Shown piece by piece: positions 29,345 through 58,297 of a stretch of 64,000 nucleotides of DNA. Below the pieces are notes generated by a model. That model searched no databases and was not told the DNA's origin. It saw nothing but the letters and a program-made list of their open reading frames with translations. Position 1 is the stretch's first letter. The number at the start of each line of letters is the position of its first letter. The stretch comes from Candidatus Binataceae bacterium (GTDB lineage Bacteria; Desulfobacterota; Binatia; Binatales; Binataceae), in the NCBI GenBank assembly GCA_035626155.1, contig DASPOF010000027.1, forward strand, positions 10,685 through 74,684, written 5' to 3'. The translations under genes were made by a program, and so were the position numbers.

Positions 29345-29392
29345 GATGTGTCTCGTGGAGTGGGCAAAGAGAGCCCGCGAGGAGAGCTTGAG

Positions 29393-30012: not shown

Positions 30013-30017
30013 GACCA

Positions 30018-30224: not shown

Positions 30225-30336
30225 GCCTCGGCCGCGCCGATACGAGGCGCGGCAGCGGCGATATGAGCCAGGGATCGGGATTTGTGACGGTTAGTTGGTA
30301 CGGGCAATGAGGAGCGCTTGAGGAGAAGGAACTCAG

Positions 30337-31629: not shown

Positions 31630-31821
31630 CGGCGCAGAGATGAGGCGGCCTTCCCCGCCGGCCGCGATTTGAGGTATCGATAACCTCGTCAGTACGCGGG
31701 GGAAGATTCCGGCCTGCCGCTCTCCAGAGAGCAGGCAGGCCGGAAGTTCAAAGAGAGAACCGAATCCGTACCGCCCCTCGTGTTTGGAGCATCGCCCAAG
31801 GTGTAAGGAGCATCGCCCAAG

Positions 31822-33360: not shown

Positions 33361-33373
33361 AGATCCGGCAGCT

Positions 33374-34120: not shown

Positions 34121-34129
34121 GGCTGGCTT

Positions 34130-34879: not shown

Positions 34880-36072
34880 CCCACAACGAAATGTTCGAGC
34901 TGCTCAAGCAGGTCACCGGCCACATCTATCCCAACGAGATCGAGATGCGGTGGTCGATTCTGATCGTCCTGTACCCCTATCTCACGGGATTGGTGGCGGG
35001 AGCTTTCATCCTGGCCTCGCTCGTCGAGGTGTTCAACGTAAAGGAAGTGCAGCCGACTTACCGGCTGGCGCTGCTGACGGCGTTGTCTTTTCTGCTCGTC
35101 GCGCCGCTGCCCCTGCTGTGCCATCTCGGGCGGCCGGAGCGGGCCTACGAGGTGTTGCTGACGCCGAACCTGACCTCGGCGATGGCGATGTTCGGCTTCG
35201 TATATGCCTGGTACCTGATGGTGGTCCTGCTGCTGGAGATATGGTTTGGCTACCGCAAGGATCTGATCGTGTGGGCTAAGCAGGAAAAATTCCCGATGAA
35301 GTGGATTCATCGGGTGATTAGCCTGTTCTCGACGGATATCAGCGAGGAAGCGGTCCGATTCGATCACAAGGCGGTAAAGTTCATCACCGCGATCGGTATC
35401 CCGTCCGCTTTTCTGCTCCACGGCTATGTCGGATTCATCTTCGGATCGGTCAAGGCGAATCCGTGGTGGAGTAGCGTCTTGATGCCGATCGTGTTCCTGT
35501 TCTCCGCCATCGTGTCGGGAATCGCGATGGTGCTGCTGCTGTACATGGTCATTATTCCGATGCGGAAGGAACATATCGACATGAACTGCGTCGATCGGAT
35601 CGCGTCGTTTTTGTTTTACGCGGTAATCGTCGACTTCTCTCTCGAGCTGCTCGATTTCATCCACCGTCTCTATGAGAGCGAGGAATCGATCAAGATCCTG
35701 TCCGCGCTGATCATCAACAAGCTCTTCATCAGCCTGGTGGTGATCCAGGTCCTGCTCGGGATGCTGGTGCCGCTCGCGGTCCTGGTGGTGATACAGCTTT
35801 TCAGCGTCGAGGAGGAACTGAGACGGCTTCTGTACTTCGTCACGGCGATCCTGATTCAAGTGGGGATCTTCAGCGTCCGATGGAACGTCGTCATCGGGGG
35901 CCAGATGTTTTCCAAGAGCTTCCTTGGCTTGACGACCTATAAGATGGAGCTGCTCGGAGTCGAGGGTCTCGCGACAGCGCTCGGGCTGTTGATCCTGCCG
36001 TTCATCATCCTGGCGGTTCTGATGAAGATCTTTCCGCCGTGGGGCGCGCCAGGACAGGTCCAGGAAGCGTAG
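34876..36072 (+). CDS. NrfD-family membrane subunit (second copy)
   Basis: ATGA-coupled to the FeS gene; polytopic. Confidence 0.75.
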   Translation: MTHNEMFELLKQVTGHIYPNEIEMRWSILIVLYPYLTGLVAGAFILASLVEVFNVKEVQPTYRLALLTALSFLLVAPLPLLCHLGRPERAYEVLLTPNLTSAMAMFGFVYAWYLMVVLLLEIWFGYRKDLIVWAKQEKFPMKWIHRVISLFSTDISEEAVRFDHKAVKFITAIGIPSAFLLHGYVGFIFGSVKANPWWSSVLMPIVFLFSAIVSGIAMVLLLYMVIIPMRKEHIDMNCVDRIASFLFYAVIVDFSLELLDFIHRLYESEESIKILSALIINKLFISLVVIQVLLGMLVPLAVLVVIQLFSVEEELRRLLYFVTAILIQVGIFSVRWNVVIGGQMFSKSFLGLTTYKMELLGVEGLATALGLLILPFIILAVLMKIFPPWGAPGQVQEA

Positions 36073-36326
36073 CGCCCTTTCGATTGGGGCGCACATCCCC
36101 GTAGCGCATCGGCGTTCGTACTTCAGAACAGCAAGTCCGCACCACGTCGAGCTTGAATGCCGGCACCTCGGGAATCGAACGAGATGACTTAGGCCGCGAG
36201 TGCCGGTGCGATAAAGCGATGTTGCGGCGGGGCGGGAAAATCAGGCTTGCCCTGATGGAGCCAATCGACGCGGCCGGTCGCGCGCGGTGAGAACGGGACG
36301 GCGCGAGCGGGAGGCCGGAGCGAACA

Positions 36327-37568
36327 ATGGTGGATGCATCAGGGCGGGCGCTGAGCGGCCTTGCGCACATCGCGCGGGCTATTGCGGCAATCTTGCTATT
36401 CGGCGTCGCGGCTGCGCAGGCCGGTCCCGCACAGGCGCCGGTCGATTGTCTATCCTGCCATAATGCGCAGCCCCCCGCCGCGGAGGCGGCCGGCGCGGTC
36501 AGCTTTTACGTGAACAAGGAGCTGTTCCACTCCTCGGTTCATTCGGCCTTCGGTTGCACCGCTTGCCATTCCGACATTCATGGCTTTCCCCATCCCAAGC
36601 CGGTGCGGCAGGTCTCATGCTCCGGGTGCCACCCGCAACAAACTTCGGCGTTCGCCGGCAGCATTCACGCGGCCGCCGCGGCCGAAAAGAAGCGCTCCTT
36701 TCCGGCTTGCCTGGATTGTCACGGGAACCCTCATGGCGTGCGCGCGATGACCGACCCGAAGTCGCGAGTTTACCCTCTCAACCTCCCGCGCACCTGCGGC
36801 TCGTGTCACGGAAGCCCCGAGCTTGCCAGGAAATACGGCTTTCCAAACGTGTACCCGCTTTACATGGACTCGATTCACGGCTTGGCACTGACCAGCGATG
36901 GCCTGCTGGTGGCCGCCACGTGCGCGAGTTGCCACGGCGCGCACGACATCGCCGACAAGAACGATCCCAGGAGCCGGACCTTCCGCACCAATGTTCCTGC
37001 GACTTGCGGCAAGTGCCATGCAGGCATCCAGGCCGATTACCGCGCCGGTGTTCATGGAGCGAAGATGGCCGCCGGGGACGCGAATGCTCCGGTGTGCACG
37101 GATTGCCATACCGCGCATCAGATCGCGCACGTGGACATCACGAACTGGCAAGTCAAAACCGTCGCCACTTGCGGCAACTGCCACAAGGAAAAACTGCAAA
37201 GCTACCGCGATACCTTCCATGGCCAGGTGACCGAACTCGGCTTCGTCGCCACCGCGCGATGCTGGAGTTGCCATGGCCCGCACAAAATTCTTCCCGCCTC
37301 GAATCCGCAATCCACAGTCGCAGCGCCAAATCTCTCCGCCACCTGCAGCAAGTGTCACCGCGGCGTAACCGCAAGCTTTGTCACTTACGAGCCCCATCCC
37401 GATGCGCGCGATCGGCAGCGCAATCCGGGCCTGTATTATTCCGCCAACTTCATGAACCTGCTGCTGTTGGGGGTCTTCGTTTTCTTCGGGGTGCACACGC
37501 AGCTTTGGCTTACGCGGTCGTTGATCAGGGGACGAAAACAGGATCCGCGGCAACCGCCACGTTTCTGA
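36327..37568 (+). CDS. 11-haem c-type cytochrome with signal peptide and C-terminal TM anchor (CbcL/CbcA-like haem domain)
   Basis: 11 CXXCH motifs and a C-terminal hydrophobic helix (NLLLLGVFVFFGV). GGGAGG RBS. Confidence 0.8.
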   Translation: MVDASGRALSGLAHIARAIAAILLFGVAAAQAGPAQAPVDCLSCHNAQPPAAEAAGAVSFYVNKELFHSSVHSAFGCTACHSDIHGFPHPKPVRQVSCSGCHPQQTSAFAGSIHAAAAAEKKRSFPACLDCHGNPHGVRAMTDPKSRVYPLNLPRTCGSCHGSPELARKYGFPNVYPLYMDSIHGLALTSDGLLVAATCASCHGAHDIADKNDPRSRTFRTNVPATCGKCHAGIQADYRAGVHGAKMAAGDANAPVCTDCHTAHQIAHVDITNWQVKTVATCGNCHKEKLQSYRDTFHGQVTELGFVATARCWSCHGPHKILPASNPQSTVAAPNLSATCSKCHRGVTASFVTYEPHPDARDRQRNPGLYYSANFMNLLLLGVFVFFGVHTQLWLTRSLIRGRKQDPRQPPRF

Positions 37569-38417
37569 ATGACAATGGAGCAAGTGGTGGAGAATAACGA
37601 TTCAGAGCGCTACTATTTCCGATTTACACTCGGTCAGCGCTACCTGCACGGCTTGTTGATCACGACGTTCCTGGCTCTTGCATGCACCGGGATGACGCTG
37701 CGGTTCAGCGAAACGCTCTGGGCTAAGCGGTTCGCGGAAGCGGCGGGCGGATTCACTGCGATTCTCTCGATACACAAGCTCTGCGCGGTGATCATCACGG
37801 CGGGCTTCATCTATCATGTCGCTGAAATCGTCGTCAGGGTGATGATGAAGGGAGAGCGAGGACTCCTGTGGGGGCCGAACTCGATGCTTCCGCAGCCGAA
37901 GGACGCGCTGGATCTTCTTCAGCACCTGCGCTGGTTTCTCTGGATGGGTCCGCCGCCCGAATTCGATCGTTTTACCTATTGGGAGAAGTTTGACTATTGG
38001 GCGGTGTTCTGGGGAATGGCGGTTATCGGAATCACTGGATACATGATGTGGTTCGGGCCGTTCTTCGCCCGCTTCGTCCCGGGTTACGTCCTGAATATCG
38101 CGCTCCTGATCCACGGCGAGGAAGCCTTGCTCGCGGTTTGGTTCATCTTCATGGTGCATTTCTTCAATTCCCATCTGCGCCCCGGGAAATTCGCGTTCGA
38201 CTCGGTGATGTTTACCGGGCGGCTGACCGCCGAGCGCTACGAGCACGAACATCTGCTGGATTATTCGCGCTTGGGCGAGTCGGGCGCGCTCGAAAGCCTG
38301 CGCACCGACGCGCCTCCGCTTTGGCTGAAAAATTTCTCCCGCGTGATCGCAATTGTCGCGGTCAGCATCGGCTTTTCTTTGCTGGTGCTGACGCTGATCG
38401 CATTCTGGAGCCGATAG
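37569..38417 (+). CDS. Dihaem b-type cytochrome (FdnI/HyaC-like membrane subunit)
   Basis: Immediately adjacent to the 11-haem gene, 4-5 TM helices with conserved His (RYLHGLL, HKLCAVI, HGEEALL, HFFNSH). Paralog of 45858-46559. Confidence 0.75.
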   Translation: MTMEQVVENNDSERYYFRFTLGQRYLHGLLITTFLALACTGMTLRFSETLWAKRFAEAAGGFTAILSIHKLCAVIITAGFIYHVAEIVVRVMMKGERGLLWGPNSMLPQPKDALDLLQHLRWFLWMGPPPEFDRFTYWEKFDYWAVFWGMAVIGITGYMMWFGPFFARFVPGYVLNIALLIHGEEALLAVWFIFMVHFFNSHLRPGKFAFDSVMFTGRLTAERYEHEHLLDYSRLGESGALESLRTDAPPLWLKNFSRVIAIVAVSIGFSLLVLTLIAFWSR

Positions 38418-43225: not shown

Positions 43226-43882
43226 TCAGCTCTCAACCCGAATCACGCCCTGTTTGATGGCAAACTTAATCAGATCGGTTCGGCTGTGAAGGTCGAGCTT
43301 CTCCATCACGTGATCGCGATGTGACATCGCGGTCTTCACGCTGACACCGAGGAACTCCGCGACTTCCTTGTTGCTGTGTCCGAGCGCCACCAGCCTCAAG
43401 ACCTGCTTTTCGCGGTCGGTCAGCGTCTCGTAAGGATCGTCCTTCCCGGGTCCCGGCGCCTGTGGCGCATGTTGCATCGCTTCTCTTGCGATCTGCGGAT
43501 CGAGCACGAGGCCGCCCTTTGTGACGGAGCGAATCGCGGCGGCCAACTCTGAGCCGAGCATTCGCTTGAGCACGTACCCCGCAACTCCGGCCTTGAGAAA
43601 GCGCTGGATATACTCGCGATCTTCGTACTGGGTCAGCACCAATACCTGGGTCTTGGGCACTTCGCGCCTGAGTTCCAGCGTCGCCTCGAGCCCTCCCAGG
43701 CCGGGCATCGCGATGTCCATCAGGACCACGTCGGGCTTGAGCCGCTGGCATCGATCGACCGCCTCGCGGCCGTTGGTCGCCTCGCCGACAACCTCGATGT
43801 CATCGGCCAGGCTGAGCAACGCCTTTATTCCGTCACGCATCAGCGCGTGATCGTCGGCGACTACGACTCGAATCTTGGCCAT
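43226..43882 (-). CDS. LuxR/NarL-family response regulator
   Basis: REC domain (VVLMDIAMPGLGG) and C-terminal LuxR HTH (LTDREKQVLRLVALGHSNKEVAEFLGVSVKTAMSH). Confidence 0.9.
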   Translation of the reverse strand: MAKIRVVVADDHALMRDGIKALLSLADDIEVVGEATNGREAVDRCQRLKPDVVLMDIAMPGLGGLEATLELRREVPKTQVLVLTQYEDREYIQRFLKAGVAGYVLKRMLGSELAAAIRSVTKGGLVLDPQIAREAMQHAPQAPGPGKDDPYETLTDREKQVLRLVALGHSNKEVAEFLGVSVKTAMSHRDHVMEKLDLHSRTDLIKFAIKQGVIRVES

Positions 43883-43884
43883 GG

Positions 43885-45747
43885 TTATGCCGCAAGCGGC
43901 ACCGTCAGCAAAACTCTCGTGCCCTGGCCCGGCGCGGACTCGATAACTGCGCTGCCGCCCAGTAGTTCGAGCCTCTCCCGTATGCCGGCCAGCCCCAGCC
44001 CTCGTCCATCGACTGCGGTGGCGGAAATGGCCGCTGGATCGAAGCCCTCGCCATCATCCTCAATCTCTACTGTAACAGCGCGCGGCCCGAGTGCACACTG
44101 GATGAGGACGCTCTTCGCCTCGGCGTGCTTGACGATGTTGGTAATCACTTCCTGAACGGCTCGAAACAGGGCGGTCTCGACCTCGGCCGGGACGCGCCCG
44201 CCGACCTCATCGAATTCACAACGCACCGACACGCCGCGCCGCTTCAAGTCGCGCTCTGCGTACCATCGGATTGCAGGGAAGAGCCCGAGGTCGTCGAGCA
44301 TCGAGGGCCGCAGGTCGAAGCTCATCCGGTGAATCCCGTCGAGCGTCTTGATCGCGAGCGCCCGCACATCCTGGAGGCGATCGCTCGAGGTTCCCGGCGG
44401 CAGCGTCGCCATCGCGGTGTCCAGCCCGAGCGCGAGCGTGCCGATTAACTGGCTGGTCTCGTCGTGAAGCTCGCGCGCGATACGCCGGCGCTCGTCTTCC
44501 TGGGCGCCGATGAGCTTTTGGAGGAGCCTGGCCCTCAGTTCGTCGCGCTGCTTGAGTTCCTGGTAGAGCCGATCGATTTCGCGGGTGCGCTCCTCGACCC
44601 GCAGCTCGAGCTGGTCGCGCGCGCGCGCCACATCCTCGAGCGATTGCCGGAGCGCAACCCGCATCCGCTCGAGCGCCGCCCCGAGCCGTCCGACCTCGTC
44701 CGCGCCGAGCTCGGGAATCGGGGTCTTGAGCTCGCCGGCGGCGATCCGCCCGGCCGTCCGGGTCAGCAATGAAAGCGGCGCCGTGATACTGGCGGCGGCT
44801 CCCAAGGCAAACAACAGCGACAGCAGCGCGAGCGCGGGAGCCCCGGCAAGAATCTTCCAGCGCAAAGCAGTCGCGGTCGAAAACGCCCGCTCCTCGGGCT
44901 GGTGGATGCTCATCCCCCACGGCACCCGGCGCGACAGCGGCGCAAACGCCATCACCTCGTTGACCCGGACGTTCACCTGTCCGCGCTCGTGACATCCGTG
45001 ACAGGTGCCGGCCGTCTGCGCCTGCCGCTTGATGAGCGCCTCGAGAAAATGACGATGGTCGCTCTCGGTGTAGAGCTGGTCGGCCGCGGTGCTGGCGATC
45101 ACGATGCCGTTCTGATCCATGAGGTCAACGGCCTCGTCCGGGTCGAGCGGCACGAAATTCAGCAGCGCGCGAAACGACGCGCTTTCCGGCTCGATCTCTC
45201 CACCGACCAGGCCGGCTACGCGGCTTTGCAGGTCTTTGACTGGTATGAGGAGAAAGAGCCGATGCGCGCCGCCGGGGAGAAGCGAAAGCGCCGAGACTTC
45301 CGGCACACCCTTCTCGAGCGCTTCCCTGAAGGCGGGAAGTTCCTTCCACGCGGGATCGAAGCCGGGACCGGTTGCGGGTTCCGCCTCGATCAGACGGCCG
45401 CTCCTGCCGAGCAGGAATACCTGTGAGAGGAGCCGGGAGCGAAGGTATGCCTCTCTGAGAGTGCCCGGCGGTATCGACGGATCGCCGGCCGCGCCGACGC
45501 CCACGATGGGCGCGATCGCCTCCAGCAGCTCGAGCTGCGAATTCACCACCGAATCGGCGTGCGCGGCCATGCTGACCGCCAGATGTTGGCGCTCGGCCAG
45601 CACCTGGTTTTCGAGCGAATGCACGCTCGACCAGCTCAGCCAGCCGAGCAGCACGGTGGGGCCGAGCGTCCCCGCCATCGTGAGAAGCACGATCCGGGTG
45701 CGAAGACCGCTGCGGCGCGCGCTCTGCCTAACGGTGGCTGTTGCCAT
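43885..45747 (-). CDS. Sensor histidine kinase (HisKA_3/HATPase) with a CXXCH haem-c motif in its periplasmic domain
   Basis: TM1 at about residues 17-40 and TM2 at about 300-325. CHGCH at about residue 245 lies between them. HisKA_3 H-box (RIARELHDETSQ) and HATPase (GRGLGLAGIRER). Confidence 0.85.
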   Translation of the reverse strand: MATATVRQSARRSGLRTRIVLLTMAGTLGPTVLLGWLSWSSVHSLENQVLAERQHLAVSMAAHADSVVNSQLELLEAIAPIVGVGAAGDPSIPPGTLREAYLRSRLLSQVFLLGRSGRLIEAEPATGPGFDPAWKELPAFREALEKGVPEVSALSLLPGGAHRLFLLIPVKDLQSRVAGLVGGEIEPESASFRALLNFVPLDPDEAVDLMDQNGIVIASTAADQLYTESDHRHFLEALIKRQAQTAGTCHGCHERGQVNVRVNEVMAFAPLSRRVPWGMSIHQPEERAFSTATALRWKILAGAPALALLSLLFALGAAASITAPLSLLTRTAGRIAAGELKTPIPELGADEVGRLGAALERMRVALRQSLEDVARARDQLELRVEERTREIDRLYQELKQRDELRARLLQKLIGAQEDERRRIARELHDETSQLIGTLALGLDTAMATLPPGTSSDRLQDVRALAIKTLDGIHRMSFDLRPSMLDDLGLFPAIRWYAERDLKRRGVSVRCEFDEVGGRVPAEVETALFRAVQEVITNIVKHAEAKSVLIQCALGPRAVTVEIEDDGEGFDPAAISATAVDGRGLGLAGIRERLELLGGSAVIESAPGQGTRVLLTVPLAA

Positions 45748-45857
45748 TGTCCCGTATCACCGCCATCGGGGCAGCGCCGCCGGCGGCAGGGTGATTGTCT
45801 GACCGATCACGCGCGAGAGGCGGTGACATACTTGCGCCGGCCGCCGGCGTATCGCGC

Positions 45858-46559
45858 TTAAGCCTGGGAGTGCGCCCGTTTCTCGCGTTCGGCGCTGGCG
45901 CGCATCCGTTCGTACTCGAGCGGATGTTCCTTTTCCATGCGCTCATGGCTCACCTTTCCCGTGAAAATGCCGACATCGAAGGGAAATACATCCGGCGATA
46001 GATGAGCGTTGTAGATGTGCCACGTGATCACGATCAGAAAAGCCAACAGCCCCTCGTTGCTGTGCGCGGTGCGGGCCGCCGGGATGAACTCGCCGGGCAA
46101 AAAGCGCGTCGTCAAAACCGGAAAGAACAGCATGAGCCCGGTCACGATCATCAGCAGTGAGCCGACCACCATTCCCCAGTACTCGAACTTCTGCCGGTAG
46201 TCGTAACGGTCGAAGCGCGCCTGCTCGTCGGACACCCGCAAGTAGTAGCGCATCATCATCACCGCATCGCGAAAATCCTTGCGCGTTATGACCATCGACG
46301 GGCTCGTCCGTTTCGAAATCACGAGTACGAGCGCTGCCGCAATGTGGGCGGCGACAACCGCGGCAAACAGGATTCCCGCGCCGCGATGCACCCATCGCAC
46401 GCGATGGATCCCTCCCATCGCCGCGATCACCCACTGCGCCCATTGCGCCTCGAAAAATTTCTGCGCAAGCCCGCTCAGCCCCAGCACCACGAACAGCAGC
46501 ATCACGAACAAATGCTCGATCCGCTGCCTGACGGAAAACCGGATTACATACTCATTCAT
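45858..46559 (-). CDS. Dihaem b-type cytochrome (paralog of 37569-38417)
   Basis: ATG at 46559 (MNEYVIRFSVRQRIEHL), same His pattern as its paralog. ATGA overlap with the upstream 9-haem cytochrome. Confidence 0.75.
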   Translation of the reverse strand: MNEYVIRFSVRQRIEHLFVMLLFVVLGLSGLAQKFFEAQWAQWVIAAMGGIHRVRWVHRGAGILFAAVVAAHIAAALVLVISKRTSPSMVITRKDFRDAVMMMRYYLRVSDEQARFDRYDYRQKFEYWGMVVGSLLMIVTGLMLFFPVLTTRFLPGEFIPAARTAHSNEGLLAFLIVITWHIYNAHLSPDVFPFDVGIFTGKVSHERMEKEHPLEYERMRASAEREKRAHSQA

Positions 46560-47620
46560 CGGTTCACCACTACGCGCCATAGATGCAGGAGAATCTGAAG
46601 CACCAATCCGCCGATCACGAACGGGATGAAGATTATGTAGAAAATCTTGACCGCGTACACCAACGGCGCATGCCGCGGGCTCGCCTCGTAGTGCCCAATC
46701 CACGCGGATGGAAAGTTGGGGCCGGCCCCCGCATGGCAGCGCCGGCAGACCGTGAGCAGGTTCGCCTTGATCACCGCCGTGCTAAGCCCTTCGACCCGGC
46801 TGATGTCATGCACGCCGTGGCAGTCCGTGCAGGTTGCGGTGAACTCGCGCGGGTCGGTTTTCTCGTAGCGCTCCATCGAAACCGTCATCCCGTGGAAGTC
46901 GGTCAGGTAAGTCGTAAGCACCTGGGTCGAAATCCCGTACTTCGCCATCATCTCCTTGTTCGTATGGCATCGTGCGCACAGTTGCGGGATGCCCAAATGC
47001 CACGAGGCCGACGTCGGATTGGTATTGTCGTGCGGATGATGGCAGTCGGTGCAGACCGGGACGTCGCCGTTGTCCTCCTCGAGCAACGCCTTGCCGTGGA
47101 CGCTTTTGACGTATGCCGCGGCGATCGCGGAATGGCACTTCGCGCAGGTGCGTGAAGTCAGCGCGCGCGGCCGGGCCGGCGGCGTAATCGCGTGCGAACC
47201 GTGACAATCGACGCAGGTCGGAGCGCCCTGGTTGCCCTTGGAAATCTCGGCGTAGTGAACGCCGTCGAGCAGCCTGCTGTACTCCGGAAAATGGCACTGC
47301 TTGCACAGCTCGTAGTACGCCAGCCGCATCGCGTGCCGGTTCTGGAACAGCTTCGGCGGATGGGGGACCGTCGTGATGTCGGAATGACAGTCGGTGCAGG
47401 CAAGCTTCCCGCCATGGACCGAATGGGCGAAGCCCTGCGCGTCCACGTAAAGCGAAAGCTTCTCACCATCGCCCAGCTTGGCCGCAAAGGCCTGATTGCC
47501 GTGGCAAGCCATGCAGGTGGCATTGGAAGGAGGGTCGGATGCGGCCGCCGCGCGCTGCCCTCCTGCGAGGGCGACGATGGCGCCGGCCGCCACCATTAAC
47601 AACGCTAATCTTTGCCCCAT
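46556..47620 (-). CDS. 9-haem c-type cytochrome with signal peptide and C-terminal TM anchor
   Basis: 9 CXXCH motifs and a C-terminal TM helix (FYIIFIPFVIGGLVLQILL). Confidence 0.8.
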   Translation of the reverse strand: MGQRLALLMVAAGAIVALAGGQRAAAASDPPSNATCMACHGNQAFAAKLGDGEKLSLYVDAQGFAHSVHGGKLACTDCHSDITTVPHPPKLFQNRHAMRLAYYELCKQCHFPEYSRLLDGVHYAEISKGNQGAPTCVDCHGSHAITPPARPRALTSRTCAKCHSAIAAAYVKSVHGKALLEEDNGDVPVCTDCHHPHDNTNPTSASWHLGIPQLCARCHTNKEMMAKYGISTQVLTTYLTDFHGMTVSMERYEKTDPREFTATCTDCHGVHDISRVEGLSTAVIKANLLTVCRRCHAGAGPNFPSAWIGHYEASPRHAPLVYAVKIFYIIFIPFVIGGLVLQILLHLWRVVVNR

Positions 47621-47844
47621 TGACGCATTAGAATATCATCACGAATGGGACGAGACTAACCCCGCAAATGGCGCAAATCGCTACATTTTCCAGACTCTGA
47701 AGTTCGCAGGCCCATCTCTCTCGCGGATCGCGCCCGCCACGATTCCTTCCGCGCCGCCGCCGTTGGGCGTATGCTGCGGTCGCGGTCGCGTCGGTCTCTT
47801 GTTAGGGCCTAAGTTGTGGCTCAAGGGAGGCGAAGGAGAAACCG

Positions 47845-49059
47845 ATGACGGCAAAATCTCCTGCCTGGTGGATGGTTCCCCTCCTGGGGGCGATTTTCGT
47901 TGCCTGCCGCGCATCGCCGGCGCCCCGCGCCGAGCTTCAGCCCAGTCAGCCCTGCGAGAAGCTTACCGAGGCGCTCCGGATTCAAGAGCGTCTGGCGCAC
48001 GAGTGTAGTCGCGGGCCCGCGCGGTCCGCCGGACCAGCGGCGCCCACGCGCCCGTGCGGTCCGAAGGACTACTGCTGTTCGGTGGAATATCGGATGCGCA
48101 GCTACGAAGCGGACAAGGCGGTGGATGAGATCGAAGAGCAGATGGGGTCTCAAGGCGCGTCTTGCTATTGCTCGAGAGACCCGGCGCAATGCCACGTGCC
48201 ACAGCCGCGCGAGCTTGAACTTTGCGAAAATGTCGCGCGAACGAATCAGGCGCACGAGAATGCGGAAGCTGCCCTTGAAGAATCAGACAGCGACAACATG
48301 TATGACGTTATTCATACCCCGCCACGGAATGCAGAAGAGGCCGCTTCGCTGAAGCGCTTGAGGGAAGCGAATCAGGCGATCGAGCTAACGGAAAAGGCGG
48401 CCGACGAGGCCGAGGCGGAGGCCTCCGCGCAAGGAATCAATTGCGAGAACATCGTCGAAGGCTGGCGCGCATCGCCGACGCCCTGCGGCGAGCCGGGTCC
48501 GAATCCGCTTTGCGAGAAACTCGCAAAGGCCATGGAGGAAAGTGACGCGCAGAGGCATCAGGAACCTGTGTGCGCCGCGCCGGTTAATACGCAAGGGGCC
48601 GCAGTCATCCAATGGCTACCGTCTTGCCCCGAGTGGACCGATTGGAAGAAGCGCGGCGACGAAGCGCAGCGAGCAATCGATCAGGTCAAGGCGCAGATGA
48701 GGTCGGACGGGACCACCTGTTTTTGCGCTCAACACGGGACGTTGTGGCGCTGCCGGCCGGGCTGCTCTCGCGAAGCTGAACTTTGCAAGCAACTCGACGC
48801 GGCCAACCAAGCGTACTCGCAGGCGATGGCCGGCGCGCACGAGTTCGCGCCCTGCTATTCGCCTTGCGAGCCGATCGGGACCGGCCTTCCGGGGATGCCC
48901 AAGGCACCCGTTGGGATCGCCGACATTCCCGGCGTCGCGCCCTCGGTGATGGAAGAAAAGCGAAGCCGCATCAGGGAAGCGCGTGGTGTGCTCGATGAGG
49001 CCCGGGCCAAGGTGGATGCGGAAAAGTTCGATTGCCAGGGATTCCAGCCGGAACAGTGA
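47845..49059 (+). CDS. Secreted Cys-rich coiled-coil protein with repeated 'P(L)CEKL' modules
   Basis: GGAGGCGAAGGAG RBS, a signal peptide, about 20 Cys and three CEKL/CKQL modules. Related to 20750-21169. Confidence 0.55.
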   Translation: MTAKSPAWWMVPLLGAIFVACRASPAPRAELQPSQPCEKLTEALRIQERLAHECSRGPARSAGPAAPTRPCGPKDYCCSVEYRMRSYEADKAVDEIEEQMGSQGASCYCSRDPAQCHVPQPRELELCENVARTNQAHENAEAALEESDSDNMYDVIHTPPRNAEEAASLKRLREANQAIELTEKAADEAEAEASAQGINCENIVEGWRASPTPCGEPGPNPLCEKLAKAMEESDAQRHQEPVCAAPVNTQGAAVIQWLPSCPEWTDWKKRGDEAQRAIDQVKAQMRSDGTTCFCAQHGTLWRCRPGCSREAELCKQLDAANQAYSQAMAGAHEFAPCYSPCEPIGTGLPGMPKAPVGIADIPGVAPSVMEEKRSRIREARGVLDEARAKVDAEKFDCQGFQPEQ

Positions 49060-49261: not shown

Positions 49262-49864
49262 TTGCGCCGGCGCGCGCGATCGGAAGGGAAGATTCACATC
49301 GCGCGGGTTATTGCGGTGAAACCATCAACTGCTGACCTCATCAAGGGCATCCGACACGACCTAATCGAGGCGCGCAATTGCTTTTCGGTTTACCGTGCCT
49401 ACAAGCTCAAAGAGACGCGCGAAAAATACTCAGACGCGTTTCGGACATTCAAGCCATTCCTTTCGTGCGATCTCCGTGCCCACTTCGCCGCGATGATGGT
49501 GACGCTAGGTCGCATTTTCGACCGGGAACCAAAGTACATTGGAATCGCTGCCTTGCTAAAAGCCGCTCCGCACCTCAAGGACTTGGAACCGGAGAAGTAT
49601 AAGCTCGCGATGGATCTCTGGGCGAGCGAGAAAATAATGCTGCTGCGGCATCAAGTTGTCGCTCACCGCTCGCCTCGCACGGAGAAGATTTTCCAGCTTG
49701 TCGATACATGCCTTGCTGACTTCAGCAAGCTCATTCAGTTGCTAGAGCAGCTGGTCGAAGCGTGGTCCCGAGCAGCCAAGTGCGATATGCGTAATTTGGG
49801 GCCAAAAATGGATCGAGAGGTGGATGACCTCCTGAAAGCTTTGAACCGGGTCTCCAAGGATTAG
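49262..49864 (+). CDS. Hypothetical protein in a low-GC (about 52%) stretch
   Basis: Compositionally atypical against the roughly 66% background and codon-periodic. TTG at the annotated start; the true start is uncertain. Confidence 0.4.
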   Translation: MRRRARSEGKIHIARVIAVKPSTADLIKGIRHDLIEARNCFSVYRAYKLKETREKYSDAFRTFKPFLSCDLRAHFAAMMVTLGRIFDREPKYIGIAALLKAAPHLKDLEPEKYKLAMDLWASEKIMLLRHQVVAHRSPRTEKIFQLVDTCLADFSKLIQLLEQLVEAWSRAAKCDMRNLGPKMDREVDDLLKALNRVSKD

Positions 49865-49948: not shown

Positions 49949-50317
49949 TTACTTCTGGCAGAAACTCCGGACGTAGCCGACCAGGCCCTTGATTTCGGTG
50001 TCATCCAGCCCGTCGGCGTAGCCGGCCATCTTCGGGCTAAGGTCGGCCGCCGGGCCGCCTTCCTTGATCACCTTGAACACGACATCATCGGTGACCCTCG
50101 CCATGCGCGCGCAATCGGTCAGGTCGCCGGGCTTGGTGGCGAGCGTTGAGGCGGCCGGGCCGTCGCCCCGTCCGGATGCTCCGTGGCACTTGACGCACAG
50201 GGTTCTGTAGTTGTCCTTTGCGGCGGCGAGGTCCTCGGCGCGCGCCTGGAATGCGCCGAGCGCAAATACAAACGCCACGAACGTGAGAATACTTAGTCGA
50301 ACAATCAGCGATTTCAT
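49949..50317 (-). CDS. Monohaem class-I c-type cytochrome (c553-like), exported
   Basis: Signal peptide, a single CVKCH motif, and a distal Met region. Paralog of 55802-56185. Confidence 0.8.
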   Translation of the reverse strand: MKSLIVRLSILTFVAFVFALGAFQARAEDLAAAKDNYRTLCVKCHGASGRGDGPAASTLATKPGDLTDCARMARVTDDVVFKVIKEGGPAADLSPKMAGYADGLDDTEIKGLVGYVRSFCQK

Positions 50318-50401
50318 TTCAGCGGTCCTGATTATTTCCCGGCCTTCAACCCCGCTCGATCGAGCGGCTCTTTAAGCTGATGTCCATGATGCATCGAGGG
50401 C

Positions 50402-51733
50402 TCAGCCGGGAGTTTCCTCGGGCAAATAACTCTTGATTCGATCGACGACCTCCGCAACCGCCTGCTCCCTACCCTCGCGCATCTCCCAAATCGAAATGAT
50501 CGGGAAGAGCTTCACGAAGATCGTGTAAAGCAGGATGAAACCCGCGAGGAAGGCGGCAAACAGCGACATCTCGACCCACGACGGGAAATAGAGGCCGCGC
50601 GCCCACGGCAGACGCGGGTTAATCAGCGTCGGCACCACGATCGTGAACCGTTCGAGCCACATCCCGATGCACACCGAGATGGATGCCACCACGATGCCGG
50701 GGATCGTCCGGGTCTTGCGGTTGCAAAGGATGGCGAAGGGGATCACGAAGTCGGTCGCAACCATCGTCCAGAAGAACGCGGCATAGCGGCCCGTGATCTT
50801 CTCCCAAAACACCGCCATCTCCACCGGATCGTGGCCATAGTAAGTCGTGATGTATTCCGCAAACGTGAAATACAGCCAGAGCAGGGTCATCACGAGGAGC
50901 AACTCGCCAAGATAGTCGAAGTGGATTTCCTTCAGGTAATCCTCGAGATGGTACACCTTGCGCAGCAGCGCCATCGTCAGCAGTAGCGCCGCGATACCCG
51001 AATAGATCGCGCCCGCGACGAAGTATGGCCCGAAGATGCTCGAGTGCCACATCGGCTGAATCGTCATCGCGAAGACCCACGAGACGACCGTGTGCACCGA
51101 GACTGCGATCGGGATCACCACGACCGCCAGAATGGCGATCGCGACTTGCAGGGTGCGATGCTGCCGCTCGGAGCCGGTCCATCCCAGCGCCAGCGCCGTG
51201 TAGATCGGCCGGCGCCATCCGCCCGTCCGGTCGCGCAGCAGCGCGATGTCTGGGATCATCGCGACATACAGATAGGTGGTGCTCGTGAAGAGGTAGGTCG
51301 TGATGCTGATCACGTCCCACATCAGCGGCGAGGTGAAATGGCTGTAGCGAAAGACGTAAAGCACGCGGTCGGGGCGCCCGAGGTCGAGCAGGATGTTGCC
51401 CGCGCCGAAAAACAGCACCATCACCGTGATCGTTTCGGCCAGCCGCGTGATCGGCCTGCGCCATTCCGCCTGGCACAGCCTCAGGATCGCGGAGATCAGC
51501 GTCCCGGCATGGCTGATGCCGACGAAGAATACGAAGTTGGTGATGTAGAATCCCCAGTACACCGGCCGGTTGAGGCCGGTCACCCCAAGTCCCTGTTCGA
51601 ACTGGGTGACATACGCATAGACGCCCCACAGCACCGTGCAGATCAGGAGAAACAGCACGGCGTAGTAGAGCTTGCCGGTCTTCAGGACCGGATCGAATAG
51701 CAGCGAATCCTGCTCGCGCGGTTCAGCCTGCAA
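50402..51733 (-). CDS. NrfD-family membrane subunit (ActC/QrcD/PsrC-like)
   Basis: Polytopic NrfD pattern (GLNRPVYWGFYITNFVFFVGISHAG, PLMWDV). Probable TTG start at 51733 preceded by AAGGAAGGTGAG; the annotated ORF (to 51778) would overlap the FeS gene by 55 nt. Confidence 0.8.
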   Translation of the reverse strand: MQAEPREQDSLLFDPVLKTGKLYYAVLFLLICTVLWGVYAYVTQFEQGLGVTGLNRPVYWGFYITNFVFFVGISHAGTLISAILRLCQAEWRRPITRLAETITVMVLFFGAGNILLDLGRPDRVLYVFRYSHFTSPLMWDVISITTYLFTSTTYLYVAMIPDIALLRDRTGGWRRPIYTALALGWTGSERQHRTLQVAIAILAVVVIPIAVSVHTVVSWVFAMTIQPMWHSSIFGPYFVAGAIYSGIAALLLTMALLRKVYHLEDYLKEIHFDYLGELLLVMTLLWLYFTFAEYITTYYGHDPVEMAVFWEKITGRYAAFFWTMVATDFVIPFAILCNRKTRTIPGIVVASISVCIGMWLERFTIVVPTLINPRLPWARGLYFPSWVEMSLFAAFLAGFILLYTIFVKLFPIISIWEMREGREQAVAEVVDRIKSYLPEETPG

Positions 51734-52424
51734 TCCACTCACCTTCCTTGAGATAGATGACATTGGGTTCGGTGCCAAGTTCCTCCATGACCCGGAATGC
51801 CCTGGCGCTTCTCGTGATTTTGGCGATCTCGGTGGTCTGATCCTCGAGGTCGCCGAAATACATGGCCTTTGCCGGGCAGCTCTCCACGCATGCGGGGACG
51901 TATTCGCCCTCGCTGCGGACTTGCCGTTTCTCGATCGCAGCCTGATCGCGGGCCTTTTGCAAGCGCTGGACGCAGAAGGTGCATTTCTCGATCACGCCCT
52001 TGGGCCTGATCGCGACGTCCGGGTTGCGCGGCGGCTTCAACTCGTCGGGCCACTGCGGCGGGAACCAGTTGAAATACTTGACCTGGTAAGGACACGCGCT
52101 CGCGCAGTAGCGGCATCCGATGCACCGGGGATAAATCTGCCCGACGATTCCCTGCTGCGTGCTCTTGTAGGTCGCGCCCACCGGGCAGACCCGCACGCAG
52201 GGAGGCTTGTCGCACTGCTGGCAGAGCATCGGCAGGAACCGCACCCGGGTGTTCGGATAGTCGCCCTCGACAACCGTCAGCACGTTCATCCAGGAAATCA
52301 GCCGCCCGCGATCCGCCTGGTCCTGCGTCGAGGGGGCGATGTTGTTTTCCTGCTTGCACGCGATCATGCAGGCCCGGCATCCCGTGCACTTATCGAGGTC
52401 GATTACCATGCCCCATCGCGGCAT
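51723..52424 (-). CDS. 4x[4Fe-4S] ferredoxin-type subunit (PsrB/ActB2/QrcC-like)
   Basis: Four Cys clusters (CTGCRACMIAC, CQQCDKPPCVRVCP, CIGCRYCASACP, CTFC...CVESCP); no Tat signal of its own. Confidence 0.85.
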   Translation of the reverse strand: MPRWGMVIDLDKCTGCRACMIACKQENNIAPSTQDQADRGRLISWMNVLTVVEGDYPNTRVRFLPMLCQQCDKPPCVRVCPVGATYKSTQQGIVGQIYPRCIGCRYCASACPYQVKYFNWFPPQWPDELKPPRNPDVAIRPKGVIEKCTFCVQRLQKARDQAAIEKRQVRSEGEYVPACVESCPAKAMYFGDLEDQTTEIAKITRSARAFRVMEELGTEPNVIYLKEGEWIAG

Positions 52425-52444
52425 CTGTGCTTCTCCAGTTCCCC

Positions 52445-54820
52445 CTACGCCTTGGACACCCGCACACGCGGGGCCGCGCCGTTAGCCAGCAATTCGAGCG
52501 GATTGACGCCTCTGCCCTTGGCCCATCTGCCCAAAGCCGTATGGCCCTGGCCCAAAGGCAGATTGACCACATTGGGCATCGCGCCCGCGTACAGGAGTGC
52601 GCGAGTCTTCAGTTTTGCCGCCGCGGATTGCACGATCACCCAGTCGCCATTTTCGATTCCGAGCGAAGCCGCGGTCTTCGGATTTATCTCGACGAATGAA
52701 TCCCAGGGCCACACCTGCGGACCGCCGACTATCTCCTGCAGATACGGCAGATTGGCCGATGCGCGGCCCATCAGCGCAATCGGCTGAAAAAGGCAAAGCT
52801 CGAACGGGTAGCCGGACAGATCGCCTCCGCTGAAAATTGGCGAGGACGCCTCGGTCGCGAGCAGACGCGGAAGCTCGAACTTGCCCGACGGAGCTTTCAG
52901 CCCCGCGCGATAATCGCCGTACACGTAGCGCGGATCGACCCATCCGCCATGCGCGAGCAGGCGCTTGACGAAATCATCGCGCGAGCCATATTTCCGCGCC
53001 GGCCAGTCCCAGGCCCTTATCTCGGGCCGCAGATATTCGGTCTGGAAACGTTCCGTGAAGATTTCGCCGTGCGGCGACTCGTAAAGCCCCGTCAGCAACT
53101 CGTTGAGCGCCTGCGAAGGTTCGGTCCATGGGAATGCGCCAGCGACGTCGCCATCGAAGGCGTGCGCGAGATCCAAAACCACTTGCGCGCAAGGACGTGA
53201 TTCATAGCGCGGAGCCAGAACCGGACTCCCGACCGCCACCGAGCTTACCGCAAAGCCGGGACTCGACGTGCGAATCTCCCAGCGTTCGAGCGAGCTGCAC
53301 TCGGGAAGGACGAGATCGGCGTACGCCGCAGTCTCATCGAGCTGCGATGCGAAGCTCACGACGAAGGGGACCTTCGTGATCGTCTCGCGCGGGAAATCGA
53401 GCGATGAGAAGAGCGGATTGGCTCCGAGCAGGAACAGCGCATTGATCTTGTACGGCTGCGACTCCCACACCGCGCGCGCCAGCGATTTGACGCTGTCGAG
53501 CGCCGGCTTCGCGACCGCCTCCGGCTTGACGCCCGCCGAACTCTTGACCGCCGGCCACCACGAAAGCGGAGGCACCGGGCAGGTCAGAACGCCGCCGGGC
53601 TTCTCGATGTTGCCGGCAAGCGCGTTCAATGCCTGGACTGCAACCGAATAGAATGCCGCCGTGCCGCCGGTGAACCTGCGGCCTCCCGCCACGGCCAGCG
53701 AGGGACCGGAAATCGCGAACTCGTGCGCAAGGCGCGTGATGGTCTCGACCTGCACGCCGGTGATTTCCGCGACCTTGGGCGCGTCGTACTCCTGGCTCAG
53801 CAGCGCGCGGAAACCGTTGGGCTGCCCGCTTTCGTTGCCCGGCCACGAGTCGAATCCGGCCACGTGCGCCGCCACAAAGGCGGCATCGTAGAGGTTGTAC
53901 TTGACCAGTGCGTTGGCGATCCCGAGCGCCAGGACGCCCTCCGTGCCCGGATTGACCGGCACCCACTCATCCGCCTTGGCGGCGGTCGCGGACATCCGGC
54001 TCTCGATCTGCACGAGCTTTCCGCGCCGGCCCTCCCAGCCGCCGCGAAATTCCCCGATCGCTCTCATCTGGCGCACCGGCGACATCGCCTCGAACATTGG
54101 TGCTCCGAAACTCAGGATGTATCGCGCGTTTTCGAAATCGTACGCGACTCGCCCGTTGATGCCCTGCGTGATGTCCTGCCCATCCGACGGCGCCGCATCC
54201 GCCTCGAAGATGAAGTTGGGCGAGCCGTACACGTCGAGGAATCGCGCCATCAGACGCCCGGCGAGCTCGGATGTCCCGCTGCTCAGAGCCGCGACTGTGT
54301 GCGCTGCGCCGCCGGTGCGCAGATCGGCGAGCTTCGCCTTGATCGTCGCGATCGCCTCGTCCCAGGAAATCTCCTGCCAATTGCCGGCGCCGCGCTCGCC
54401 CACGCACTTCAGCGGCGACCTTACCCGGTCCGGGCCGTACACCAACTGAAGCGCCGCCTGCCCGACCGGGCACAAAGCGCCCTGGTTGACCGGGTCCAGC
54501 GGGTTCCCCTCGACTTTGATCGCCCACTCGCCGCGCTTGAGCCCGTCCGAGCCGAGCTTGCGCACAATCGTTCCGCATCGCGCCGGGCATAGCCCGCATA
54601 GCGATACGATGCGCGATTCGGGGCCGTGCTCCGGGAAGTCCTCCTGCGGAACGACGTTGAGCGCTTGCGCTGCCGCGCCCAGACCGACCGCGGAACCGGC
54701 GCCCAGCGCGGCCGTGCCCAGCCCGACCATCTTGAGGAAGTCGCGCCGGGCGACAGCGTGCTCGTTGCCGCTCGATGCGCCCGTGGCGCCCCGTTGGTTA
54801 TTTTTACCGCCGCTTGTCAT
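52445..54820 (-). CDS. Molybdopterin-oxidoreductase (CISM/DMSO-reductase family) large subunit with Tat signal (PsrA/PhsA/TtrA/ActB1/QrcB-like)
   Basis: Tat motif ARRDFLKMVGLGTAALGAG and N-terminal FS0-type CX2CX3C (LCGLCPARCG). About 790 aa from the ATG at 54820, which overlaps the upstream pentahaem stop (ATGA). Confidence 0.8.
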   Translation of the reverse strand: MTSGGKNNQRGATGASSGNEHAVARRDFLKMVGLGTAALGAGSAVGLGAAAQALNVVPQEDFPEHGPESRIVSLCGLCPARCGTIVRKLGSDGLKRGEWAIKVEGNPLDPVNQGALCPVGQAALQLVYGPDRVRSPLKCVGERGAGNWQEISWDEAIATIKAKLADLRTGGAAHTVAALSSGTSELAGRLMARFLDVYGSPNFIFEADAAPSDGQDITQGINGRVAYDFENARYILSFGAPMFEAMSPVRQMRAIGEFRGGWEGRRGKLVQIESRMSATAAKADEWVPVNPGTEGVLALGIANALVKYNLYDAAFVAAHVAGFDSWPGNESGQPNGFRALLSQEYDAPKVAEITGVQVETITRLAHEFAISGPSLAVAGGRRFTGGTAAFYSVAVQALNALAGNIEKPGGVLTCPVPPLSWWPAVKSSAGVKPEAVAKPALDSVKSLARAVWESQPYKINALFLLGANPLFSSLDFPRETITKVPFVVSFASQLDETAAYADLVLPECSSLERWEIRTSSPGFAVSSVAVGSPVLAPRYESRPCAQVVLDLAHAFDGDVAGAFPWTEPSQALNELLTGLYESPHGEIFTERFQTEYLRPEIRAWDWPARKYGSRDDFVKRLLAHGGWVDPRYVYGDYRAGLKAPSGKFELPRLLATEASSPIFSGGDLSGYPFELCLFQPIALMGRASANLPYLQEIVGGPQVWPWDSFVEINPKTAASLGIENGDWVIVQSAAAKLKTRALLYAGAMPNVVNLPLGQGHTALGRWAKGRGVNPLELLANGAAPRVRVSKA

Positions 54821-55395
54821 TTGTGACACGAGATGCAGTCCGTCGATGCCTGGCGCTGCTGATGGCAGTTCATGCACCAGTCCATCGACTGATTTATCGC
54901 CGGACGGACCGGAGGCGAAGTCAAGCTGGTCATATCGCCGTGGCAGGTTGCGCACTCGACTTTCCCGATCACGACGTGCCGGCGATGCGAGAAGAAGACG
55001 TAGTCGGGCTGTCCATAGACCCTGTTCCACGGAATCCACCCGGCTGCCGCAAAGTCTTTGAGCTTCGCAAGCTCCGGCTTGGCAGCGAGCTTCGCCGCCG
55101 TCATCCGCTTGATGATCCTGTGGCAGCTCATGCAGGTATCCGGCTGCGGGATCCCGGCGAAGGTCTCTTTCTCCACCGTCTCATGGCAACTCGTGCAGGC
55201 GATGCCGTTCTTGCCGGAAACGTGACGGTGATGGTCGAAAGCGATCGGCTGTTCAACGGCAGGCGTATACCGCAGGCACGCCGATGCTAACAGGGCGAGC
55301 CCGCCGCCAAGCAAAGCAAGCCCGACAGCCGCCGATCGCCAGCGCACCAATCGGCCTGCAAGGCGCCCGATTGGATCTGATTTGGACATCCTCAC
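54817..55395 (-). CDS. Membrane-anchored pentahaem c-type cytochrome (ActA/NrfB/NapC-like)
   Basis: N-terminal TM helix plus 5 CXXCH motifs (CTSCH, CMSCH, CATCH, CMNCH, CISCH). Confidence 0.8.
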   Translation of the reverse strand: MRMSKSDPIGRLAGRLVRWRSAAVGLALLGGGLALLASACLRYTPAVEQPIAFDHHRHVSGKNGIACTSCHETVEKETFAGIPQPDTCMSCHRIIKRMTAAKLAAKPELAKLKDFAAAGWIPWNRVYGQPDYVFFSHRRHVVIGKVECATCHGDMTSLTSPPVRPAINQSMDWCMNCHQQRQASTDCISCHK

Positions 55396-55801
55396 GCAGC
55401 TCCTGCGCTAACGTTCCACCCGGGGCATTTGGGGGAAAACCGCGGCGGCGCTCCCTGCCGATATCGCGGCCACCGTGTCCGTCTGCATCATGACTCTTTT
55501 CGCGTCTCCTGCCCCGCCTAATGCAACTGGTGTACCCGGATAAGTGATCCTTAAAATCCCGAAATATCTGGGCCTTTCTCCCTGGCCCCGCGAACCAACT
55601 GTTGCCTTTGACTCCAGCACAGTTGGCGACGGTGGCGCGTTCGGACTCACAAGCGACAGCGTGTACGGCAGTCTAGCGGCTCACTCAAATCGGGGCTCGA
55701 CCCGCTACTTTTTCGCGGGAGCCCAAGTCCGCTAGTTCGCGTGGGAGGGCCCGCCGCCCTCGATCTCAACCCGGGTCAGTATGCCCTCCGGCTTTTGGCG
55801 A

Positions 55802-56185
55802 TCACTTCTTGCAGAAGCTCCGCAGGTAGCCGACCAAGCCCTTGATGTCGGCGTCGCTCATCCCGTCGCCGAAGGGAGGCATCGCCGCGTTCAAGTTCGC
55901 CGCCGGTCCGCCTTCCTTGATAACCTTGAAGATGGTGTCATCGGTGACCTTCGACATCTTCGCGCAATCGGTAAAGTCACCCACCTTCGCTGAGAGCTTC
56001 GAGGCGCTGGGGCCATCGCCCTTGCCGGTCTGGCCGTGGCAGTCTGCGCATGAATCCGTGTAAGTGGCCTTCGCATCGGCCGATGCGGGCGCCGCTCTGA
56101 GAACCAGCGCGAGCGTTGCCGCTGCGGGCAGTGCGACAAGCATCCAACCCATCGATCTCACTTTCGTCCCCGAATAATTCGGCAT
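55802..56185 (-). CDS. Monohaem class-I c-type cytochrome (paralog of 49949-50317)
   Basis: ATG at 56185 with a GGAGG RBS, a signal peptide and CADCH. The C-terminus (KVTDDTIFKVIKEGGPAANL...IKGLVGYLRSFCKK) is near-identical in pattern to its paralog. Confidence 0.75.
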   Translation of the reverse strand: MPNYSGTKVRSMGWMLVALPAAATLALVLRAAPASADAKATYTDSCADCHGQTGKGDGPSASKLSAKVGDFTDCAKMSKVTDDTIFKVIKEGGPAANLNAAMPPFGDGMSDADIKGLVGYLRSFCKK

Positions 56186-56520
56186 GACACCTCCGTCCTT
56201 TCTCGCCGTGTGATTTACGGACAGGGACGCCGCAGGATATTCGGTTCCTGCCGGCATCGCCCTGGCCGACTGTTTAATCGCGGTCCTATGTATCACCCCA
56301 TGTGCGGTCCGGTCCAGCGGCGGAGCCCGCACTTCAGGGCAACAAACGACGGGATTCTAGGGTTGTAAGCCCGCGCCGTCAAGGAAAGGCGGCATCGGGC
56401 GAAGCGCCTGTTTGTTGGAGAGGCTTCGACTGATGCGAGCCGCACCGTGCATCGCGCGCTCGGACATTGCCGCGCTCCCGCGTTCCCCCTACGGCTCGCC
56501 GCGGATGCGAAACGCGCGTC

Positions 56521-58194: not shown

Positions 58195-58297
58195 CGCCGC
58201 CTACCGCTCTTTGCGGCAGGGCTCGCCTGGACAGGCTTCTGCCGTTATCAGAATTGCCTCGATCACAAAGCAATGCTAAGGCGGCGGCGGGTGTCGC

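Follow-up and report, generated by a model that had tools for sequence, protein, structure and literature searches.

This work concerns a four-gene cassette in a 64,000-nucleotide stretch of DNA (here called the window) from Candidatus Binataceae bacterium (assembly GCA_035626155.1, contig DASPOF010000027.1, positions 10,685 to 74,684 of the forward strand), in which a sensor histidine kinase with a haem-c motif in its periplasmic domain is encoded beside a multihaem cytochrome. The four genes lie head to tail on the minus strand in the order cytochrome c, cytochrome b, kinase and regulator, with the regulator starting 2 nt past the stop codon of the kinase (Table 1). An earlier note, made from the letters of the window, had drawn attention to these genes, and all of the features that it claimed for the cassette were found where it had placed them. 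The note apparently did not recognise the periplasmic domain as a double Cache (dCache_1), nor the large family of similar sensors, distinct from the known single-Cache haem family, to which the domain belongs. The interpretation that we favour, with slightly better than even confidence, is that the kinase and regulator form a haem-c two-component system of the Binatia (Binatota) which reports redox state and controls its partner bc-type cytochrome.

Table 1. Features of the cassette and of the related module, with coordinates in the window.
Feature	Coordinates	Strand	Characteristics or basis
Nonahaem cytochrome c, CbcA/CbcL-like, 354 aa	46556..47620	(-)	Signal peptide, 9 CXXCH, C-terminal TM 326-344
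Cytochrome b, FdnI/HydC (Ni_hydr_CYTB) type, 233 aa	45858..46559	(-)	PF01292, TIGR01583
Gap between cytochrome b and kinase, 110 bp	45748..45857	(-)	No terminator-like site on coding strand
Sensor histidine kinase, 620 aa	43885..45747	(-)	TM1, periplasmic dCache, TM2, HAMP, HisKA_3, HATPase_c
Periplasmic double-Cache domain (dCache_1), residues 38-298	44854..45636	(-)	AF2 model, Foldseek, family profile
CHGCH, C249-H253, predicted haem-c attachment site and proximal His	44989..45003	(-)	Translation, homologue alignment
D230-H231 'SDH' motif, start of helix over proximal-module pocket	45055..45060	(-)	Homologue alignment
NarL/LuxR-type response regulator, 218 aa	43226..43882	(-)	REC 6-118, GerE 153-208
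Region upstream of operon, candidate promoter/regulator site only	47621..47844	(-)	Block kept in close Binatia loci
Paralogous module: 11-CXXCH cytochrome c (36327-37568) and cytochrome b (37569-38417)	36327..38417	(+)	

The kinase has two hydrophobic segments, at residues 19-37 and 299-317, an arginine-rich N-terminus and a HAMP domain (318-368) immediately after the second transmembrane (TM) helix, and it therefore follows that the 261 residues between the helices (38-298) face the periplasm. This is in agreement with the earlier suggestion of a periplasmic segment of approximately 260 amino acids, and it places the CXXCH motif (AGTCHGCHERG) in the periplasm and not in the cytoplasm; the two cysteines of the motif, C249 and C252, are the only ones in the segment. 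The transmitter consists of a HisKA_3 domain (419-482) and an HATPase_c domain (523-619), with the H-box ELHDETSQ and with N and G boxes that are present and normal. The coupling to a NarL/LuxR-type regulator that had been proposed is borne out by the pairing of this intact NarX-type kinase with a protein composed of a REC domain, with its phospho-acceptor aspartate, and a GerE/LuxR domain; the acidic pocket of the regulator (DD10-11 and D56) was read from its sequence. Transmitter and regulator architecture and TM-HAMP coupling are shared with NarX-NarL, but NarX senses nitrate via a four-helix periplasmic domain whereas the window kinase has a dCache. No NCBIfam equivalog reached its cut-off for the window proteins, all scores being far below, and the kinase and regulator are therefore not orthologues of any named system.

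Assignment of the periplasmic domain to dCache_1 (PF02743) is based on profile similarity and on a predicted two-module architecture. The window protein alone scored 20-22 bits, below the cut-off of 45 (E 1.5e-4 to 5e-4), while PF02743 was matched by 18 of 20 aligned relatives (best 1.8e-24) and by 53 of 68 full-length ones. A search of PDB sequences with the single domain gave no match; only a profile of the family did so (PctC 4e-11, PctA 8e-10, KinD 3e-9), and the similarity to PctC and KinD lay in the N-terminal helix and distal module. An AlphaFold2 (AF2) model of residues 38-298 (pLDDT 88.7, pTM 0.86) predicts two alpha/beta modules in the order long N-terminal helix (2-39), distal module, proximal module and C-terminal helix. 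When the model was compared with the PDB using Foldseek, dCache domains came out on top (3LIF, PctA/B/C, Mlp24/37 and DctB, with TMq up to 0.74 for 3LIF) and, by their descriptions, almost all of the best 50 matches listed are tandem or double-Cache sensor domains. Fold, detectable sequence homology and placement between two TM helices are thus features that the domain has in common with solved dCache receptors. These receptors, however, are cofactor-free and hold their small-molecule ligands by non-covalent binding, for the most part in the distal module, whereas the CXXCH of the window domain is in the membrane-proximal module, where the model puts it at the third strand and the turn into the fourth (beta3/beta3-beta4).

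Conservation of the motif was examined by searching 1.84 billion cluster representatives (50% identity) exhaustively with HMMER, the periplasmic domain serving as query. The domain is shared by 403 clusters at E <= 1e-3 and by 229 at E <= 1e-10; word-index homologue searches were shallow for this family, returning 3 and 24 matches. The motif counts given here cover the best 150 homologues with coverage of the site. A CXXCH in exact register, with C249, C252 and H253 all present, was found in 123 of them (82%), and such a motif would be expected by chance approximately 8e-4 times in 261 residues. The histidine after the second cysteine is present in 123 of the 124 members that carry a CXXC, the lone exception being P0055 (CRGCY). 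Judged by this alignment the CXXCH is a conserved signature of the family and not a chance motif. It nearly always takes the form C-H-x-C-H, with histidine at the X1 position (H250) in 113 of the 123 (about 92%), whereas a histidine is absent from this position in all 20 CXXCH motifs of the two adjacent multihaem cytochromes. D230 is aspartate in 104 of the 123 motif-bearing members versus 7 of the 27 motif-less ones, R282 is arginine in 91 versus 7, and H231 is histidine in 111 (90%) versus 16. The motif-less members have a shorter, cysteine-free turn at the motif position and form seven separate clades in a rough neighbour-joining tree calculated with the motif region masked. The 68 full-length motif-bearing members include 59 with HisKA_3, five with HisKA and about 20 with an extra GAF domain, and in public annotation the members are labelled no more precisely than 'cache domain-containing protein', 'HAMP domain-containing protein' and similar. 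From these searches the haem-dCache family, as we call it, would comprise at least about 120 clusters at 50% identity, mostly from uncultured Binatota, Chloroflexota and Nitrospirota.

The distribution of conserved residues differs between the two modules. In the proximal module 17 columns reach at least 80% identity, ten of them polar or aromatic, whereas the distal module has four such columns, all glycine or proline. This concentration of conservation suggests that the functional site is the proximal CHxCH and not the distal pocket which most dCache_1 receptors use.

Several periplasmic sensors with haem c are already known, including DcrA, GSU0582/GSU0935, Tll0287 and several kinases of Geobacter and Anaeromyxobacter (PMC8396549, PMC3831638). 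Cache domains were considered to be cofactor-free until 2026 (PMC12889525), when such sensors were unified as the single-module family sCache_heme (PF11845), the first Cache with a covalent cofactor (PMC12889525, Deshpande et al.). These single-Cache sensors are haem-binding proteins that react to redox state or nitric oxide (NO) (PMC12889525, PMC8396549). The window family resembles them in having an extracytoplasmic Cache with a single conserved CXXCH near the beta3/beta4 junction, TM-HAMP-kinase outputs and haem-less relatives. None of 20 family members matched PF11845 (DUF3365/Tll0287), even at E <= 1, and the chains 3B42, 3B47 and 5B82 were absent from the 49 PDB profile hits at E <= 10. 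The architectures also differ, in that sCache_heme consists of one Cache module in which the CXXCH is borne by an alpha-helical insertion between beta3 and beta4, whereas the window domain has two modules and its motif, in the proximal one, is modelled with low confidence as strand; the topological place is nonetheless similar. In addition, the window family has C-H-x-C-H with an upstream SDH where GSU0582 has CQSCH, its CXXCH is conserved at 82% versus the 99% reported for PF11845 (PMC12889525), and its conserved cytochrome c/b neighbourhood sets the cassette apart. That the motif occupies a similar place in both Cache families would be accounted for by parallel evolution or by a very ancient connection. 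The searchable literature yielded no account of a dCache carrying haem or another covalent cofactor, and the haem-dCache family, distinct from PF11845 by its profile relationships, is apparently undescribed. Haem kinases of Geobacter were considered as possible members; judged by published descriptions only, this is not supported, GSU0591, GSU0599 and the Adeh sensors each having been assigned one PAS-like domain of the GSU0582 type (PMC3831638). DcrA of Desulfovibrio vulgaris likewise has a periplasmic c-type haem for redox or oxygen sensing, but is a methyl-accepting chemotaxis protein with a haem domain described as PAS-like (PMC8396549). The window protein is a kinase, and the two were compared by description only. 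The motif of DcrA, which we take to be CHHCH, would fit the C-H-x-C-H pattern; a literature search did not confirm it.

The partner genes of the kinase encode what is most likely, from architecture and family matches, a CbcBA/CbcL-like quinol:cytochrome c oxidoreductase, with an FdnI/HydC-type cytochrome b (PF01292, Ni_hydr_CYTB, E 5e-15; TIGR01583 also matches) and a membrane-anchored multihaem cytochrome c. The pair had been described earlier as a nine-haem cytochrome c with a dihaem cytochrome b; the nine CXXCH motifs were counted, while 'dihaem' is an expectation at the level of the family. The ATG of the cytochrome b gene at 46559 overlaps the stop codon of the cytochrome c gene as ATGA, an overlap which suggests translational coupling. 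This ATG is most likely the start codon, as opposed to the first GTG at 46703, the open reading frame (ORF) being over-extended at its 5' end; the cytochrome b genes called in two related contigs encode 233 (L001) and 248 (L002) amino acids. Paralogy with the plus-strand module, which had also been proposed, holds for both subunits (cytochrome c 28% identity, E 1e-32; cytochrome b 32%, E 1e-39; six histidines common to the two cytochromes b), although the haem count does not, the paralogous cytochrome c having 11 CXXCH and not nine. The paralogous module sits downstream of genes for an iron-sulphur (FeS) protein (34130-34879) and an NrfD protein (34876-36072).

That the kinase and regulator are linked to the cytochrome c/b pair, as the earlier note held, receives support from synteny in 11 close loci, four distant ones (31-37% sensor identity) and three contigs at about 25%, and from one fusion protein. 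The scan for related loci used a single window protein as the query and has a bias in favour of Binatia. Among genomes, Candidatus Binatus soli and metagenome-assembled genomes (MAGs) of Binataceae came closest, at 81-82% identity. The full order of nonahaem cytochrome c, cytochrome b, kinase and regulator was found in L001 and L003-L011, which are mostly labelled as Binatia, and again in L012-L014, where the sensors are 33-37% identical and the sources are two Chloroflexi MAGs and one labelled Sphingomonadaceae. L002 has cytochrome b and kinase and then the contig end, and in L015 (31% sensor identity) cytochrome b, kinase and regulator are present with the contig ending inside the cytochrome b gene. 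Where a cytochrome c gene directly upstream of the kinase is intact, which is so in 11 other loci, it encodes exactly nine CXXCH in every case. Three metagenome contigs at about 25% identity retain the linkage, with cytochrome b and kinase in L017, a full cassette preceded by FeS and NrfD genes, as in the other module of the window, in L018, and cytochrome b, one small opposite-strand gene, kinase and regulator in L019. The gene calls of L017 and L018 are frameshifted and the DNA encodes TTCHSCH and TTCHRCH, respectively; P0160 and P0164, which had been candidates for haem-less proteins beside a cytochrome b, were set aside as frameshifted calls, the other frame giving TTCHRCH and TTCHSCH. In P0026, a metagenome representative of 910 amino acids, a cytochrome b (residues 14-232, 46% identical to that of the window) lies N-terminal to the same sensor kinase, here with dCache-CHECH; either the protein is a real fusion or the sequence reads through two adjoining genes. 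Cytochrome genes are absent from the neighbourhood of P0169 (L020), the only haem-less relative for which genomic context was available. Judged by gene order, the four-gene cassette is conserved across at least two named phyla.

At one of the distant loci (L012, 3881-15288) two cytochrome c/b pairs and two HisKA_3 kinase/LuxR regulator pairs surround the haem-dCache kinase, which itself has an extra insert of approximately 160 amino acids between HAMP and HisKA_3. This arrangement indicates that the cassette has been duplicated and elaborated in other phyla.

The Ccm and Ccs cytochrome c maturation systems recognise a CXXCH on a polypeptide exported by Sec, and this motif is sufficient for haem attachment. 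Adjacent genes of the window encode cytochromes with 9, 11, 8, 6 and 11 CXXCH motifs, so the organism must mature cytochromes c and covalent attachment of haem to the exported kinase domain is the default expectation. We propose that a haem c would be held covalently on C249 and C252 of the membrane-proximal module with H253 as its proximal ligand, and that H231, the best candidate, is probably the distal ligand, giving bis-His ligation. Such a haem would lie near the membrane surface beside the partner cytochromes and may equilibrate with the periplasmic electron-transfer chain, probably via the nonahaem cytochrome. A change of redox state, with a change of ligand or spin state, would be passed through TM2 and HAMP to the HisKA_3 kinase, and the phosphorylated NarL-type regulator would then tune transcription of the cassette, perhaps together with that of other respiratory genes. 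A redox relay is favoured because the proximal module adjoins the membrane surface at which the nonahaem cytochrome and cytochrome b sit. A further proposal, which is tentative and more doubtful than not, is that the CHxCH dCache is a second covalent-cofactor Cache class whose commonest form is a redox reporter, the kinase docking on its nonahaem cytochrome c and cytochrome b partners, or being reduced directly by them, so that electron flux sets the expression of the complex.

A number of observations weigh against a redox-reporting haem. Its attachment, in the window kinase as in all other family members, is predicted from the sequence. AF2, which models no cofactor, puts the motif in a beta-hairpin of low confidence (pLDDT about 65, the lowest block of the model), as might be expected where the cofactor is missing, and no obvious haem crevice is built with confidence. 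The near-invariant histidine at X1 (H250, window 45000-45002) is not explained by a simple haem-c site and, together with the conserved Asp-His 18 residues upstream, would be unusual in one; both might instead point to a metal site (Zn, Cu, Ni or Fe) formed by CHxCH with D230 and H231, or to a thiol-disulphide switch of the CXXC. This explanation is very improbable in our view, in that a histidine after the second cysteine in all but one of the CXXC-bearing members is the hallmark of haem c, an exported CXXCH suffices for attachment, the organism makes many cytochromes c, and the genomic partners of the kinase are haem proteins. It is also improbable, if slightly less so, that the input is a small molecule bound in the distal Cache module with the proximal haem playing a structural or modulatory part only. 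Solved dCache_1 receptors, among them PctA/B/C and the Mlp structures, do normally bind their ligands distally (PMC3831638), and the N-terminal helix and distal module are where the profile similarity to PctC and KinD is found, yet the distal module of the window family is without conserved polar or aromatic residues, ten of which are found in the proximal module.

The alternative which carries the most weight, though we still consider it rather unlikely, is that haem is attached but that the kinase answers to a small haem ligand (NO, CO, O2, sulphide or nitrite) and induces the cytochrome c/b module so that this compound is respired or detoxified. Signalling-fused members of the one haem-c Cache family that has been characterised act as NO sensors (PMC12889525; bioRxiv 10.64898/2026.05.25.727664), but that is a different sequence family, to judge from the failure of any of the 20 members to match PF11845. 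Regulator genes often adjoin their targets irrespective of the signal; a ligand sensor, too, would be expected to show synteny with a target operon, which therefore cannot separate redox from ligand. Furthermore, L016, a motif-bearing Chloroflexi member that has a GAF+HisKA kinase and an OmpR-type regulator, is without cytochrome neighbours, which suits a free-standing ligand sensor and shows that the sensor is not obligatorily tied to a bc-type complex. Against a gas ligand, the candidate distal histidine H231 suggests a six-coordinate haem, which would disfavour gas binding without excluding it, and both the tight linkage to one type of cytochrome b across named phyla and the fusion protein indicate that sensor and complex are partners. 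As regards control of the cassette by its own regulator, no shared regulator-binding motif emerged when upstream regions were aligned or when their k-mers were compared with those of other intergenic regions, which also counts against the redox-reporting system that we favour.

A functional parallel to that redox-reporting system is cbcBA of Geobacter, encoding a dihaem cytochrome b and a membrane-anchored multihaem cytochrome c, which is induced via the adjacent regulator BccR as redox potential falls (bioRxiv 10.1101/2021.04.15.440034). While the regulator is known, the sensing step was not described (bioRxiv 10.1101/2021.04.15.440034); a sensor protein with a haem motif, GSU0599, is encoded beside bccR (PMC8396549). 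The window pair has in common with CbcBA/CbcL a quinone oxidoreductase subunit of the dihaem-b type and a C-terminally anchored multihaem cytochrome c, with nine haems in CbcL, a likeness that is one of architecture. Differences from the window cassette are the sigma54 dependence and divergent transcription of BccR, the seven haems of CbcA and the order of the genes. Haem-c Cache sensors and regulator-controlled bc cytochromes are already known, and what appears to be new is a dCache_1 domain with a proximal CHxCH in a nonahaem cassette.

Gene order would suggest that the cassette is autoregulated. The last 75 nt or so before the cytochrome c gene form a block that is conserved among close Binatia loci and includes a direct repeat (ATTTGCG x2), and a consensus promoter and terminator scan found nothing meaningful on the coding strand. 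The conserved block (window 47621-47700, minus strand) runs up to the start codon (…GATGATATTCTAATGCGTCAATG) without a Shine-Dalgarno sequence, and this may reflect a very short leader or a different mode of initiation; the more distant loci L008-L010 have GGGAGGAAG at the Shine-Dalgarno position.

A second sensor kinase (536 amino acids, TM 25-43 and 203-221, HAMP+HisKA+HATPase) is encoded on the plus strand in the region 26145-29137, followed by a sigma54-type regulator (REC+Sigma54_activat+HTH_8) with the same architecture as BccR of Geobacter. The only two cysteines in its periplasmic segment of approximately 160 amino acids form CSSAPCH (residues 111-117), a CX4CH variant of the haem-c signature. 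A word-index protein search found no homologues, and the one relative located, L021 (83% identity), keeps CASAPCH. This kinase lies upstream of NrfD, multihaem, FeS and NrfD genes and of the paralogous cytochrome c/b pair, and each Cbc-like module may therefore have its own haem-c sensor. The surrounding island of respiratory genes (window 29000-38417 and 49949-60130) encodes three NrfD-type membrane subunits (30337, 34876, 50402), two FeS subunits (34130, 51723), a molybdopterin oxidoreductase (52445-55039), an NHL-repeat protein (60127), multihaem cytochromes with 6, 8 and 11 CXXCH (31822, 33374, 58298) and monohaem cytochromes c (49949, 55802). Divergent from the cassette is an ORF of 404 amino acids (47845-49059, plus strand) that has no Pfam match, two cysteine-rich segments which look alike by eye and a cysteine in its hydrophobic N-terminus (…AIFVAC…) that could belong to a lipoprotein signal; none of the related loci has it beside the cassette. 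A lone HEPN gene of the AbiU2 (abortive-infection-like) type (49262-49864, plus strand) is situated between the cassette and the respiratory cluster that follows.

No class of bacterial extracellular sensors is larger than the Cache domains. If the haem-dCache family is indeed a second covalent-cofactor Cache class, with a redox reporter as its commonest form, the signal in that form would be electron flux through a complex and not a diffusible molecule. Those kinases of the family which are at present annotated as 'cache domain-containing' could then be re-annotated as probable haem sensors, and the cassette would offer a concrete system in which to study the sensing of redox potential and the choice among parallel quinol oxidoreductases in anaerobic and extracellular respiration.

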